From positions 86,234 to 150,233 of the forward strand of contig CAZBGZ010000003.1 in NCBI GenBank assembly GCA_964491925.1: a stretch of DNA of 64,000 bases, given 5' to 3'. The notes under the pieces are model-generated. The model was not told where the DNA came from and made no database searches. It saw nothing but the letters and a program-made list of their open reading frames with translations. Source of the DNA: an uncultured Candidatus Saccharibacteria bacterium (GTDB lineage Bacteria; Patescibacteriota; Saccharimonadia; Saccharimonadales; JAGQNJ01). The translations under genes and the position numbers were made by a program. Positions 40,623-43,958 of the stretch are shown in pieces. The stretch's first letter is position 1. Each line of letters opens with the position of its first letter.

Positions 40623-40658
40623 AGTTCGATTATATGCTATACAGTTAATAAATTGGCT

Positions 40659-40687
40659 GAGCGTTAAGGTCTAGAACCTTATCGCTC
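40659..40687. other. 12-bp hairpin at the distal edge of the three-gene island
   Basis: gagcgttaaggt-ctaga-accttatcgctc (1 mismatch). No T-tract on the minus strand, where the island operon ends. Confidence 0.4.
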
Positions 40688-40711
40688 GCTTTTCCTCTAG
40701 AATTATAACAA

Positions 40712-40729
40712 AACGAGACAAACGAGACA
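40712..40729. repeat. Tandem direct repeat aacgagaca x2 abutting the stop codon of the island's last gene
   Basis: aacgagaca|aacgagaca at 40712-40720 and 40721-40729. The stop codon (cta, read on the plus strand) is at 40730-40732. Confidence 0.6.
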
Positions 40730-41335
40730 CTACAGCACGAGTTTTGAGATCGCACTTGCTAGTAAGGGCGCTACATGGCGTGAGGCTTCTTTGTTTGGAT
40801 GATTTTCCCAGAACGGCAGTCGTTGATATTTGCGTTGTAACATGTTTGCTTGTTTACCTCCTTCTGGTCCTGCTAATAGGTCGAAAAAGTTGAAGACTGT
40901 AACTCGTCTGTCTGTTTTAAGCTCACTAAGCCATGTTGCGAGTTCGCGTGCTCTCTTGGCATCTTTGGAGTTAGTATGAAGCGGTCGAAGTGGGGGTGTT
41001 GTCATGATAAGCAGCTTACCCTTCGAATGCTTCAAAAAGCCATCAATAATCATTGTGTACGATTGTTTAAGCTGCCCTAGCGCTTCGTTACTTCCAATAG
41101 CATTATTTGGGTAACAAGACTTAATAATTACTAAATCTTCATGACGGGAATTCTCACTAAAGTATTTGGCGTAGTCGACTGGTTTAGTGTCGTCAGCTGG
41201 TATGCCTTTCCGCTTATTGTTATCGATATCTTTAAAATCAATCGATGAGTCGATGTCAGAAATAAGCTGAGCTAGCTTGCCGTCATTGAGCAAGTTTTTG
41301 CCTATGGAGCGGTGGATGAATAGAACAGTTTTCAT
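40730..41335 (-). CDS. SGNH/GDSL-like hydrolase-fold protein (divergent), island gene 3
   Basis: Block-I-like VLFIHRSIG near the N-terminus, block-III-like CYPNNAIG, and block-V-like ENHPNKEASRHVA. The assignment is tentative. 4-nt overlap with the upstream gene. Confidence 0.4.
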   Translation of the reverse strand: MKTVLFIHRSIGKNLLNDGKLAQLISDIDSSIDFKDIDNNKRKGIPADDTKPVDYAKYFSENSRHEDLVIIKSCYPNNAIGSNEALGQLKQSYTMIIDGFLKHSKGKLLIMTTPPLRPLHTNSKDAKRARELATWLSELKTDRRVTVFNFFDLLAGPEGGKQANMLQRKYQRLPFWENHPNKEASRHVAPLLASAISKLVL

Positions 41336-42051
41336 GATTCTTTGGGCTTTATTCTTCTTCTTGCAGCAGGTTCAACAGCATACCGGGGAATACGGTCAAA
41401 TACAGTTGCTTTATCGTCAATATGCTCAACATTCCAGTATTCAGGAAGCTTAAAAGATAGTAGGCATATTCCAATATTCTCTATCTCTCGTGCAGCATAT
41501 GCGAACATTACCTTGGCTGATTCAGAGTTATTAAGATCTGGTAAATCTTTCTTGCCTCGGAGATCGCCATCATGCTCATGAGCGTTACGATTATCACGCA
41601 GCGTGTCCTGCCAATGTCTCTTCTGCAAATCGATCAGACCTTTGAAATTCCCGAGCTCAGGATACTTTTTGCAAAAAGCCTGAATCTGCACTTCGTATTG
41701 GCTATCGCCGGCAACAATTGCACCGGCTTCGTACCCAATGGAGCTCAAGAACTTTATTAAACGGTCTTTGTAAGCGCTCCAAAGTGAGCTGTACAAGGAA
41801 TTATATGCAGCATCCTGTTCGGATGTTGGCCTTGATCGGAATTCTTTGGCTTGGATCGTTTTGTAATGGTTACGTGCTTCATTAAGCTTTTCGTAGACAC
41901 GGTCGGCTCTGAAATCGGCATCATCTTTAATTTCGGGATCGGCTAATTTACTCACACCATCTTTTAAAAGTTGCCAGACGCTCTCAACTTCAGGATCTTC
42001 TGGGCCCCATTCAGCAGAGAGTGTAACATTTGGAACGGATATATCCGACAT
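41332..42051 (-). CDS. Hypothetical protein with a HEPN-like RNxxxH motif, island gene 2
   Basis: 239-aa soluble, helix-rich ORF. TLRDNRNAHEHDG contains RNAHEH (R-N-x3-H) and RDNRNAH (Rx5H), matching the HEPN Rx4-6H RNase signature. No other family recognised. Confidence 0.4.
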   Translation of the reverse strand: MSDISVPNVTLSAEWGPEDPEVESVWQLLKDGVSKLADPEIKDDADFRADRVYEKLNEARNHYKTIQAKEFRSRPTSEQDAAYNSLYSSLWSAYKDRLIKFLSSIGYEAGAIVAGDSQYEVQIQAFCKKYPELGNFKGLIDLQKRHWQDTLRDNRNAHEHDGDLRGKKDLPDLNNSESAKVMFAYAAREIENIGICLLSFKLPEYWNVEHIDDKATVFDRIPRYAVEPAARRRIKPKES

Positions 42052-42150
42052 AAGACTATTATACTGCTAAAACTTGATCCTTCTTCCATTTGGTCCTTCC
42101 ATACTCCACTAATCAGAATGCCGATCATACTACCTGGTTTCAGTTCGGTT

Positions 42151-43056
42151 TCAGCCTCGGCTTTTACTGGCTAATTTATTATATGTTACTGTCCATCGTG
42201 CATTATTTCCTATCGTGAAGCCTTTTAGGATATTGTTATTGGTTACCATGACGGGACTGACATGAGTCCCCTTGTCAGAGTTTTCTCCCGCCGCAATATG
42301 CTTATACACTAAATCTTCTGATAAATCTGGAATAATTTTTGCAGGGTCAACATAGCTGTATTCATTCTCAGCAATAACTCGCTCCGAGTACTTTCGTGGA
42401 ATACTGACTTGGTAAACACTTTCTCCTATTGTAGGATTATATTTTGCTTCATGTCTAATCATGTCCACTAGGATTCTTCCCATAGCCTTTGGACCTACAA
42501 GCCTGCCCTTTAAGCGCTGTGCTTTTCTTCGCGTTCCTGCTGTAACCTTTGAGGTAGAAAAATGGATTAGTGTATGGATGTCTCTGTCTGGAGGTAGCCT
42601 TAACATTTCAATTTGGTACCTTTTCACGTCTACAAGGTTAGACACTTGCCATATGATCGGGAATAGCTCATCTGGAGTGTTCATCCAAGTTGCAGCAATA
42701 AATGCTTGTCGTTTAAAATTATCTGGGATAATTGATGGTAACTTTTCTAAACTGTTTTGTGCTTTATCAAGGAAATGATCAAATAAGAGATTACTGTCAA
42801 CAGGCCTGCTTAAGAGCGTTTCTGCTATCCAGTCCTCAGTATTTAGTTCGGGCTTTGCAAGTTTTCGCTTCTTAGCTATCTCGAGTGTTGTAGGCAACTT
42901 GCTGAGGCCGGTATAGCCCACTATAGTATGCCAATCAAGGACGGTCGCCTTAATTGCGTTATCTGTCACTGCCTTCCATGTTCTAGAATCAGTAAGTCTC
43001 CTGTCCGATACTTGGATAATATAGTTGCTGGTTATTGCGGTAGCAATCATCGTCAT
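42151..43056 (-). CDS. Hypothetical protein with a proteasome-beta/HslV-like (Ntn-hydrolase) N-terminus, island gene 1
   Basis: The N-terminus MTMIATAITSNYIIQVSDRRLT...NAIKATVL...IVGYTGLS parallels proteasome beta TTIvgv...vvlAaDrRaT...K...G.aG. Thr2 follows the initiator Met, Asp is 16 residues later, and Lys and Gly have similar spacing. The rest (300 aa in total) is unrecognised. Confidence 0.35.
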   Translation of the reverse strand: MTMIATAITSNYIIQVSDRRLTDSRTWKAVTDNAIKATVLDWHTIVGYTGLSKLPTTLEIAKKRKLAKPELNTEDWIAETLLSRPVDSNLLFDHFLDKAQNSLEKLPSIIPDNFKRQAFIAATWMNTPDELFPIIWQVSNLVDVKRYQIEMLRLPPDRDIHTLIHFSTSKVTAGTRRKAQRLKGRLVGPKAMGRILVDMIRHEAKYNPTIGESVYQVSIPRKYSERVIAENEYSYVDPAKIIPDLSEDLVYKHIAAGENSDKGTHVSPVMVTNNNILKGFTIGNNARWTVTYNKLASKSRG

Positions 43057-43176
43057 ACGCTCATGATAACAGATATGGCAAATGGTCTAGGAACGCGGTC
43101 TGCAAGTTCTACTGCATGGCTCTTATGGGAGGAACCGGTCAGGAACAAAGATTATCTGATAGGCTACAGGGGTGAG

Positions 43177-43220
43177 AATAAAAATAGAGGCAATGGTCAC
43201 GGAACGTGATCATTGCCTCT
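43177..43220 (-). terminator. Rho-independent terminator separating the tRNA region from the island operon
   Basis: 15-bp stem agaggcaatggtcac/gtgatcattgcctct (1 GU), loop ggaac. On the minus strand it is followed by ATTTTTATT. Confidence 0.7.
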
Positions 43221-43233
43221 GTTATGCTTGCTC

Positions 43234-43255
43234 TGGCTGGGGATGAGGGATTCGA
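43234..43255 (-). repeat. 22-nt direct repeat of the tRNA-Gln 3' end (T-loop to CCA)
   Basis: tggctggggatgagggattcga is identical to 43418-43439, the 3' end of the intact tRNA-Gln. Confidence 0.9.
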
Positions 43256-43343
43256 CCTGCCTTTGGCAGGCCCGAAAGTTCACGATTGCAAGCATAGCTT
43301 GTATCGGAACATTTCCTTGCAAAATGCCACAGGCATTTTTCAC
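43256..43343 (-). repeat. Three-hairpin module, copy 1 (joins GATTGGG to the tRNA 3' fragment at the T-loop position)
   Basis: Minus strand: GTGAAAAATGCCTGTGGCATTTTGCAAGGAAATGTTCCGATACAAGCTATGCTTGCAATCGTGAACTTTCGGGCCTGCCAAAGGCAGG. Confidence 0.7.
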
Positions 43344-43385
43344 CCCAATCGCTGCGTCGGATGTTTGAAGCACTCAGAGCCATTT

Positions 43386-43409
43386 CAAAAAGCCCACGCT
43401 AGGTGGACT
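43386..43409 (-). terminator. Rho-independent terminator of tRNA-Gln
   Basis: Minus strand: AGTCCAC-CTAGC-GTGGGCT followed by TTTT. It is nested in the longer palindrome CCATTTCAAAG...CTTTTTGAAATGG. Confidence 0.65.
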
Positions 43410-43417
43410 CTTTGAAA

Positions 43418-43491
43418 TGGCTGGGGATGAGGGATTCGAACCCCCGATCGTGGAACCAGAATCCACTGCCTTACCACTTGGCCAATCCCCA
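43418..43491 (-). tRNA. tRNA-Gln (CUG), CCA encoded
   Basis: Reverse complement: TGGGGAT-T-GGCCAAGTGGTAAGGC-A-GTGGA-TTCTGGT-TCCAC-GATC-GGGGG-TTCGAAT-CCCTC-ATCCCCA-G-CCA. U1:A72 and the D-arm resemble E. coli tRNA-Gln. Confidence 0.9.
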
Positions 43492-43546
43492 GTATCTGCT
43501 TTATTTTACCCTAAAGTGGGGTTCGAATTATTAATTAGGGATTCGA

Positions 43547-43633
43547 GTCACCTATGGCGACCCCGAAACTACATCTTTCAAAACAAGTTTTGAAGGGTAG
43601 GTTTCCTTGCAGACAGCCACTGGCTATCTTCAC
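43547..43633 (-). repeat. Three-hairpin module, copy 2 (T-loop position)
   Basis: Minus strand: GTGAAGATAGCCAGTGGCTGTCTGCAAGGAAACCTACCCTTCAAAACTTGTTTTGAAAGATGTAGTTTCGGGGTCGCCATAGGTGAC. Confidence 0.7.
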
Positions 43634-43663
43634 CCCGATCGTGGAACCAGAATCCACTGCCTT

Positions 43664-43753
43664 GTCACGTTCCGCGACCCCAGAACTTTCTTACTATAAA
43701 CAAGTTCATAATCTGAAAGATTCTCTTGTAAAGTGCCACAGGCACTTCTCACG
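43664..43753 (-). repeat. Three-hairpin module, copy 3 (D-loop position)
   Basis: Minus strand: (C)GTGAGAAGTGCCTGTGGCACTTTACAAGAGAATCTTTCAGATTATGAACTTGTTTATAGTAAGAAAGTTCTGGGGTCGCGGAACGTGAC. Confidence 0.7.
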
Positions 43754-43857
43754 CTTGGCCAATCCCCAACGTCAACGTGTGCTTGTGATGTTAATATTCT
43801 GCCGACAAAATAAATTTGCTCGGCAAAATTGGTAACTTCACAAATCCGTTTCCTCTT

Positions 43858-43883
43858 AAATTCGTGAAAGGTCTCACGAATTT
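43858..43883 (-). terminator. Terminator hairpin downstream of eno
   Basis: Perfect 10-bp stem aaattcgtga/tcacgaattt with a 6-nt loop. The A/T tracts are part of the stem (bidirectional type). Confidence 0.55.
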
Positions 43884-43958
43884 GCGGAACATCTAAATGC
43901 AGATAACGGAGGTAATTGTAACAAAGTTACTCACTAATTACTAGATTAGATAGATAGT

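Follow-up and report, generated by a model that had tools for sequence, protein, structure and literature searches.

Small protein-less insertion units with a conserved three-hairpin core in the tRNA genes of Saccharibacteria, and the case for their mobility

The 64,000-nt stretch of Candidatus Saccharibacteria DNA analysed here (the window; contig CAZBGZ010000003.1) contains a single intact gene for tRNA-Gln(CUG), found by both ARAGORN and the Rfam tRNA model (61.2 bits) at 43491->43418. The gene lies on the minus strand, and the locus is described in that direction throughout, with coordinates given as window positions. It is surrounded by pieces of its own sequence, which are joined by three copies of a three-hairpin module: module 1 at 43753->43664, module 2 at 43633->43547 and module 3 at 43343->43256. 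The initial annotation, made from the letters of the window, had described the intact tRNA with identical fragments around it and the three modules joining them; its coordinates are confirmed, and alignment, common fold and a covariance model agree on the module copies.

The part of the locus upstream of the intact tRNA, piece A, begins with a copy of nt 1–15 of the tRNA (43754..43768), identical to the intact sequence. This start of a displaced 5′ fragment marks the ancestral position of the gene, as it stands behind the original upstream flank; the same flank precedes an uninterrupted tRNA-Gln in a related genome (L125; the L-numbers are labels of the loci compared). Module 1 (43664..43753; 76.8 bits with the covariance model), with a leading C, occupies the D-loop position, where it replaces TGGT. 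It is followed by a further identical copy, AAGGCAGTGGATTCTGGTTCCACGATCGGGG (43634..43663), which starts at the end of the D-loop, takes in the anticodon arm and finishes with the 5′ strand of the T-stem. Module 2 (43547..43633; 94.8 bits) stands at the T-loop position in place of G53-T54, and the short flank behind it, TCGAATCCCT (43537..43546), provides the remainder of the T-loop and the 3′ strand of the T-stem, completing the stem of the arm that carries the module. Short flanks of this kind are also seen in L003, L070 and L090. The next segment, ATTCGAACCCC (43518..43528), reads as the reverse complement of the uninterrupted T-arm, GGGGTTCGAAT, and is kept in L003; judged by its complementarity, it can pair with the tRNA sequence on either side of module 2. 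The intact tRNA is preceded by a new leader (43492..43517), which is unrelated to the ancestral upstream flank and bears a TAAAAT hexamer resembling a –10 element (43508->43503); a consensus promoter scan did not call this leader.

Immediately 3′ of the CCA end of the intact tRNA (43418..43491) lies a terminator-like hairpin with a T-run, T1 (43383..43417), which was not called by a simple terminator scan. Piece B (43382->43234) opens with TGGCTCTGAGTGCTTCAAAC (43363..43382), which, compared by eye, matches the reverse complement of the tRNA 3′ end in degenerate form and has equivalents in L005, L018, L029, L038 and L115. A short forward flank ending in GATTGGG (43344..43362), resembling the variable loop and T-stem 5′ strand (GATCGGGG in the tRNA), leads into module 3 (43256..43343; 90.0 bits), again at the T-loop position, and thence into a displaced copy of the last 22 nt of the tRNA, from T-loop to CCA (43234..43255). 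This last piece is an exact repeat, with two occurrences in the window against none expected by chance. A spacer and a second terminator-like hairpin, T2 (AGAGGCAATG...CATTGCCTCT, then a T-run), complete the locus at 43176..43233.

When aligned, the three window modules have a mean column identity of 79%, and the same three hairpins form in each, with folding z-scores of –2.2 to –3.6. A 32-nt degenerate pattern built from them has only these three matches in 64 kb, where none is expected, and the covariance model of the wider family (101 members) assigns them 77–95 bits (E values from 1e-17 to 5e-22) and finds no other match in the window. The consensus fold, derived from an alignment of 101 module copies, consists of three helices with 32 pairs, 21 of which show compensatory double changes. 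In this alignment 97.0% of the pair cells are paired, as against 78.6% in shuffles, and 551 cells carry double changes, as against 154; pairing drops to only 27–51% if the partners are slid by 1–3 columns. Three single-stranded segments are invariant or nearly so, namely GUGA at the 5′ end, GCAAG in the linker between hairpins 1 and 2, and GGG in the linker between hairpins 2 and 3, and the same is true of the GCC-NGU-GGC top of hairpin 1 and the CUUG-type tip of hairpin 2. The variants of hairpin 1 quoted in the initial annotation are correct. Its statement that hairpin 2 is of unrelated sequence has to be amended, since the members of the family conserve both its tip and its base (GAAA/UUUC and covarying variants). 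Its suggestion of a selected RNA structure has fared well, the pairing and double-change counts supporting the view that the module is a selected structure rather than the random debris of attachment (att) sites.

G·U pairs occur at three fixed positions in 85%, 41% and 40% of the copies, with the G on the 5′ side every time. Such a pair becomes an A·C mismatch on the other strand, so that the fold is possible on the tRNA-sense strand only. This is what an RNA would show; a single-stranded DNA of the tRNA-sense strand would be compatible as well. The corresponding count for the hairpin between flank and reverse complement is 6 G·U, 1 A·C and 6 transversions, few of the cases being clean. At presumed orthologous loci, compensated pairs outnumber broken ones by 305 to 95, a comparison in which the orthology of the modules is not secured, because their similarity does not follow the locus.

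The module occurs well beyond the three copies known to the initial annotation. A scan of species-representative genomes with the strict pattern GTGANNANNGCCNGTGGCNNTNTNCAAGNNAA, which yields lower bounds, returned at least 117 stretches, with at least 126 copies in at least 94 genomes, nearly all of them labelled Saccharibacteria or Saccharimonadales. With the covariance model there are about 155 matches in 117 loci among the matches listed. A Clostridiales genome (L014) was rejected as a source of family members, its score of 24.9 bits marking a chance pattern match. Among the copies listed, 26 different isoacceptors are involved. Where a tRNA lies within 300 nt of the module it is on the same strand in 91 of 92 cases; in 60 cases the module comes after the tRNA, at a median gap of 80 nt, and in 31 before it (median 136 nt from module start to tRNA start). 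Almost all copies (99/101) reside in partial tRNA copies next to an intact gene of the same tRNA identity. We think it reasonably probable that the modules represent a Saccharibacteria-specific family of very small, protein-less insertion units living in tRNA genes.

Two kinds of unit can be distinguished. In a 5′-side unit, the original upstream flank is followed by the tRNA from nt 1 to a loop, the module and 8–11 nt that complete the stem of the arm; then come a loop, a reverse-complement segment matching the sequence that would span the insertion site without the interruption, and lastly a new leader and the intact tRNA. Piece A of the window belongs here and carries a second module in its D-loop, and reverse-complement segments analogous to ATTCGAACCCC are found in other units. 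In a 3′-side unit, the type to which piece B belongs, the intact tRNA is followed by a terminator-like hairpin, the 3′ half of the tRNA in degenerate reverse-complement form and a small loop, and then by a forward variable loop and T-stem 5′ strand, the module, the sequence from T-loop to CCA and a second terminator. The short flank stops where the stem of the hosting arm ends, so that the module is presented in a closed stem every time. The T-loop is the commonest site of insertion, D-loop, anticodon-loop and variable-region sites being used too, and the orientation is always that of the tRNA.

For 36 units, both sides could be placed exactly on the neighbouring tRNA. Exactly two tRNA nucleotides are missing from 29 of these (GT in 14, TT in 13), and the base preceding the gap is G in all 36, with GG in 30. 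The acceptor strand is identical in the fragment and the intact tRNA in 48 of 64 units, which fits hybrid genes that must still pair. The tRNA pieces are not stray fragments but the displaced remains of a gene that small cassettes have split, every cassette bringing a substitute for part of the tRNA: 5′-side units bring a 5′ part together with its own leader, and 3′-side units bring a 3′ part with its own terminator-like hairpin. Through the entry of a unit and the part that it carries, an intact tRNA gene comes to adjoin a displaced, module-bearing fragment, which in most cases has a short reverse-complement copy of uninterrupted tRNA sequence before or after it, and the modules therefore sit at the ends of integration units. 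The window holds one 5′-side unit (module 2), a later solo insertion (module 1) and one 3′-side unit (module 3).

The same end structure also bounds longer DNA. In L047, a 2.8-kb island encoding a DUF4238 protein and open reading frames (ORFs) of no assigned function lies between tRNA-Gln and a typical end of reverse complement, loop, flank, module and 3′ fragment, and a similar island is present in L033. Right after the tRNA-Gln of L047 (L047:2783-2930) there is in addition an array of T-loop-to-CCA remnants of other tRNAs (e.g. GGTTCGAATTCTTTCTGCCCACCA), some of them preceded by reverse-complement-like sequence, which suggests repeated integration at one site.

Orthologous loci in related genomes were reached via enolase homologues, and these genomes show every intermediate state of the window arrangement. 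In L125 (enolase 85% identical), the upstream flank of piece A is present at ≥90% identity over about 130 nt and runs into an uninterrupted tRNA-Gln. Relative to this site, the window carries about 277 extra nt, made up of module 1 and a cassette of ~196 nt. The cassette consists, in order, of module 2, TCGAATCCCT, an 8-nt loop, ATTCGAACCCC, the TAAAAT-bearing new leader and tRNA nt 1–53; it splits tRNA-Gln in the T-loop but supplies a new 5′ part, so that the gene is rebuilt. In L003, only module 2 is present, about 95% identical to that of the window, and the D-loop of the fragment is normal. Modules 1 and 2 are both found in L122/L123, where the 3′-side unit is absent, and no unit is found at the locus in L119–L121 or L125. 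Among the tRNA-Gln loci of the relatives compared, module 3 occurs in the window only.

At some loci, the fragment and the intact tRNA are not copies of one another. The intact tRNA-Gln of L122 is another allele, with the acceptor TAGGGTG/CACCCTA against TGGGGAT in the fragment, and in L051 and L004 the fragment and the neighbouring tRNA gene differ by compensated stem changes. Fragment and intact tRNA are thus different functional alleles at these loci, which indicates that DNA of other lineages was brought in. The intact tRNA-Gln(CUG) at L122:5078-5175 differs from the fragment in both the acceptor and the anticodon stem and is followed by an apparent decayed original 3′ end (CCTCCAGCCA), an arrangement that suggests replacement of the whole functional copy.

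Modules can insert by themselves too, both in fragments already present and within other modules. Module 1 is such a case, a simple insertion without a reverse-complement partner; it is present in L122 and missing from the orthologous fragment of L003. In L094, a second module lies inside the first, between GGG and hairpin 3, and what is left of the outer module's hairpin 3 (CGCGGAACGTGAC) comes behind the inner module. Nesting is apparent also in L107, L116, L037, L044 and L072, the last having six copies within 2.3 kb around a tRNA-Leu, three of them in one 5′ fragment. Mean module identity is 0.69 for random pairs, 0.71 for modules at the same tRNA and 0.73 for modules in the same genome, and similarity reaches 0.94 between different tRNAs of different species. 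As similarity is nearly independent of tRNA identity and genome, we conclude that the modules turn over and spread rather than descend vertically at fixed sites.

The tRNA-Gln locus is a recombination hot spot. In two relatives with 90% identical enolase (L121:2837-5738 and L120:2693-5484), a gene for a large serine recombinase stands immediately after tRNA-Gln, with no module there; the L121 protein has 496 aa with Resolvase and Recombinase domains, that of L120 is apparently split, and Replic_Relax and DUF7249 genes lie alongside. Between tRNA-Gln and a conserved 175-aa gene (93% identical), the window (40623-43233) and L122 (L122:5152-7263) have entirely different gene sets, with ORFs of 301, 239 and 201 aa in the window, the first two without a Pfam match, and of 177, 231 and 214 aa in L122, the last being DUF218; the region beside the tRNA is thus a variable island. 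The window ORF at 42151-43056 was considered as a recombinase and rejected; it has no Pfam or PHROG match and is unrelated to the L047 island ORF. A second motif of ~85 nt (AAAGGGAAAAGAGCAGCGAGC...GAGCGATGAGAAAAACCGTAGGTTTGTCTCAT), without an Rfam match, occurs at L121:2597-2680 and in L119, L120, L062 and L075, directly upstream of tRNA genes or fragments of differing identity (Gln, Ala, Phe). In L119–L121, it stands in place of the upstream flank shared by the window and L125.

We could not find a known family to which the module belongs, and the element is undescribed as far as Rfam 15 and full-text literature searches extend. Only the tRNA model passes in Rfam 15; among the weaker matches that touch a module, AdoCbl-II ranks first, with 14.9 bits (E = 3.4). 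Models of the hammerhead, twister, twister-sister, pistol, hatchet, HDV-like and hairpin ribozymes give no match up to E = 10 in 43100-43900, and those of group I and group II introns give none at the module region to the same limit. A blastn comparison with phage, plasmid and viral sequences returned no match, and the strict pattern is absent from viral contigs. Eight viral matches to a looser pattern were discarded as modules because all score ≤23 bits and apparently lie within coding sequence (two examined).

The picture that we favour, with a rough probability of 0.55, is that of a new protein-less mobile family in tRNA genes with a conserved RNA-like core. The proposal of a small mobile element in tRNA loops, one of several made in the initial annotation, has gained from the nested copies, the presence and absence of units in close relatives and the constant junction rule. 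Because its fold is confined to the tRNA-sense strand, the module is most likely active as RNA, which would be produced by read-through of the tRNA transcription unit. It would probably serve as a cis-acting handle or as a catalytic core, with the machinery that copies or inserts the element encoded elsewhere. The tRNA homology carried by the units may let them settle in, and spread between genomes, via conserved tRNA sequence; Saccharibacteria are naturally competent. Our confidence in any particular enzyme is much less than that in the overall picture.

Several points weigh against a mobile family of this kind. Clustering of the ORFs within 2.5 kb of the modules gave no protein family in more than six loci and identified no enzyme, and the families that recur in up to six loci look like ordinary chromosomal genes, not recombinases. 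The island ORFs (L047, L033) are without recombinase or reverse-transcriptase matches. No free or circular form was found, and the phage, plasmid and viral collections hold no copies. An RNA role is suggested by patterns in the DNA, and in 3′-side units a terminator-like hairpin separates the tRNA from the module, so that expression of the module there would need read-through. The two-nucleotide replacement and the reverse-complement segments are unexplained by the chemistry of standard transposition or site-specific recombination. Moreover, the near-perfect pairing of almost all copies could equally reflect a host-level function, and the differences in presence among relatives could stem partly from deletion or from gene conversion by the neighbouring intact tRNA.

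A bolder version of the mobile-family reading, which we put forward tentatively and think possible rather than probable, is that of a new class of mobile nucleic-acid element whose activity would lie in its own structured RNA. This RNA would be a self-inserting ribozyme, or the recognition core for an RNA-dependent machinery, invading exposed tRNA loops. The element would persist by delivering replacement tRNA parts and would spread between competent Saccharibacteria by means of its tRNA homology arms.

The module might instead be a non-coding RNA or cis-regulatory domain of benefit to the host, either as part of a leader or trailer, composed of fragment, module and reverse-complement segment, that governs the transcription, processing or folding of the adjacent tRNA, or as a stable small RNA scaffolded by the tRNA arms. 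The preservation of the structure in nearly every copy across at least 94 species, 97% paired and with many compensatory changes, is readily understood in these terms, as are the invariant junction nucleotides GUGA, GCAAG and GGG. So is the setting of the module, which always has the orientation of the tRNA, lies within or just past its transcription unit and stands in a closed stem, where a switch of pairing between the reverse-complement segments and the tRNA next to them is conceivable. A regulatory element would nevertheless hardly be expected to vary in presence at the same locus among close relatives, to occur in tandem, nested and piled-up copies (L072, L094, L005, L057), to use 26 different tRNAs and four loop positions, or to show a similarity independent of tRNA identity, and the intact tRNA has its own new leader. 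We consider a host function rather unlikely.

We also think it improbable that the fold acts in single-stranded DNA as a recombination site like CTX attP or attC, with forward and reverse-complement tRNA sequence paired in a hairpin from which the module bulges. A recombinase whose gene lies elsewhere would use such a site to insert small circles, or DNA that has been taken up, into tRNA genes. CTX phage integrates by way of a folded hairpin site, and a reverse-complement copy beside the junction copy is the arrangement expected after folded-hairpin integration; the solo and nested insertions, however, lack this partner. The anticodon loop and T-loop are the crossover regions of tRNA-targeting integrases, and the modules too are located in tRNA loops. 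The recombination hot spot, with its large serine recombinase element right after tRNA-Gln in the closest relatives and the wholly different downstream gene content of the window and L122, is also in keeping with such a site, but no recombinase is present in cis and no match exists in the phage, plasmid and viral collections. Furthermore, in DNA the G·U pair of 85% of the copies would turn into a G·T mismatch, as would the two others, each seen in about 40%.

A mobile ribozyme-like RNA that inserts into tRNA transcripts at exposed loops after a G, the chimeras being copied back into DNA, would account for the strict sense orientation, the choice of loops exposed in the folded tRNA, the G before every mapped junction, the RNA-type pairing and the invariance of the junction nucleotides, as in a catalytic core. 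No known ribozyme family matches, however, no reverse transcriptase is seen within 2.5 kb of any copy, and the leaders and terminators of the cassettes are not part of the mature tRNA, all of which makes this explanation distinctly doubtful.

It is very improbable that functional tRNA genes carry the modules as introns to be taken out of their transcripts. The modules are structured, lie at D-loop and T-loop positions within tRNA sequence and interrupt two otherwise complete genes (L013 tRNA-Ala GGC and L073 tRNA-Lys UUU), but 99 of the 101 copies belong to incomplete tRNA copies with an intact gene next to them, neither the group I nor the group II models match, and nested copies exist. Each of the 101 modules was deleted, with several fillers and offsets, and the product was submitted to ARAGORN; a full tRNA was obtained in only two cases, again L013 and L073. 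With two tRNA nucleotides missing at the site, no excision restores the conserved T-loop or the GG of the D-loop, and the intron-like insert considered in the initial annotation can be set aside. In the two exceptional loci (L013:850-1010 and L073:1631-1791), no intact copy of the interrupted tRNA is found in the 8-kb locus.

Comparison with known systems helps to define what is distinctive about the mobile units that we propose. With the islands and prophages that integrate into tRNA genes by means of tyrosine-type integrases they share the splitting of a tRNA gene and its rebuilding from a part in the incoming DNA, the displaced partial tRNA copy as a direct repeat, the use of T-loop and anticodon loop, and, in L047 and L033, islands of kilobase scale with the same end structure. 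The direct repeat and restored tRNA typical of such islands are present, as the 22-nt repeat, the 48 of 64 identical acceptor strands and the empty site of L125 attest; an integrase next to the att site is not, within 2.5 kb of the modules, in L047 and L033 or among the window ORFs. In contrast to islands, most units are only ~150–200 nt long and without genes or a nearby integrase, 5′-side units with their own leader are common, the displaced copy holds a covarying 88-nt module in its loop and has a reverse-complement tRNA segment beside it, and two target nucleotides are lost. The possibility raised initially, that the modules are the att arms of a known integrative family, is therefore half right: they mark the ends of integration units, but no known family and no adjacent integrase go with them.

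Small repeat elements such as miniature inverted-repeat transposable elements (MITEs), REP/BIME, the Rickettsia palindromic elements, pneumococcal BOX and the Neisseria Correia elements are likewise short, protein-less, multi-copy and rich in stable hairpins, can nest and land in RNA genes, and are presumably mobilised by machinery encoded elsewhere. The module differs from them in its strict tRNA-loop targets and strict orientation, in often travelling with a replacement tRNA part, and in having features of a functional RNA, namely strand-specific G·U pairing and junction nucleotides that do not vary. A MITE it is not, since its ends (GTGA... and ...GTGAC) are not inverted repeats and the target loses 2 nt with no target-site duplication. 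The module meets neither the island nor the small-repeat definition fully.

Group I introns have been described in the tRNA genes of Patescibacteria, where they occupy the anticodon loop of genes that are otherwise complete; they possess a group I catalytic core, and their splicing has been shown (PMC13011429). They share with the module the phylum and the fact that insertions in tRNA genes were missed by standard annotation tools, whereas the module has 88 nt, no intron-model match, a preference for the T-loops of partial copies and an excision that would not restore the gene. Archaeal non-canonical introns and split tRNA genes resemble it in D-loop and T-loop insertions, sometimes several per tRNA sequence, but here the host is bacterial and the interrupted copies are not the functional genes. 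At the module boundaries (G|UGA... and ...GAC|N), no obvious 4-bp bulge-helix-bulge helix is seen by eye, no formal search having been made.

Structure conserved over sequence, and an inverted target copy beside the junction, are features that the units have in common with CTX phage attP and integron attC sites, from which they differ in the three-hairpin branched fold with conserved G·U pairs, in the tRNA targets and in the absence of any identified integrase or Xer-type site. Three further candidates were rejected. Derivatives of IS200/IS605 and TnpB/IscB guide RNAs are not indicated, there being no tnpA, tnpB or iscB neighbours and the flanks after the module varying from 10 to 30 nt. For an IS110-type bridge RNA, there is no recurring protein family near the modules, and the ORFs tested are without transposase domains. 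A guide-RNA or spacer array, with the module as scaffold and the tRNA pieces as guides, agrees neither with the variable flank lengths nor with the lack of an effector gene.

Saccharibacteria have tiny genomes, yet many species keep several module copies around essential tRNA genes. Some 100 distinct copies, covariation at 21 pairs and junction nucleotides that do not vary make the module one of the better-supported undescribed structured motifs accessible to comparative analysis. Even if the module is a mere passenger, units of ~200 nt that split a tRNA gene and bring the missing half are, to our knowledge, the smallest integration units of this type. If the RNA proves to be catalytic or to guide insertion, it would represent a mobile element of a new kind and might be developed into a tool that directs insertions to tRNA genes, in a phylum only now becoming genetically tractable. 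The units explain the contig breaks and tRNA pseudo-fragments that make the tRNA regions of these genomes difficult to assemble and annotate. A Logan contig of 3397 nt from the same strain as the window (L001) ends, by coordinate arithmetic only, near the repeated 30-nt tRNA piece at 43634, so that units may break assemblies and could be under-represented in metagenome-assembled genomes.

Other inserts are found at the position that the module takes in 3′-side units, between the short tRNA flank and the displaced T-loop-to-CCA copy. Inserts of 80–110 nt, unrelated or partly related to the module, lie there in L024:7680-7900, L067:2696-2830, L082:4508-4690 and L010:6650-6823, and a further one is present in L038 on the minus strand, after tRNA-Leu 551-636. 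Some of them reuse the GCC-AGU-GGC hairpin, and several module families seem to share the same architecture.

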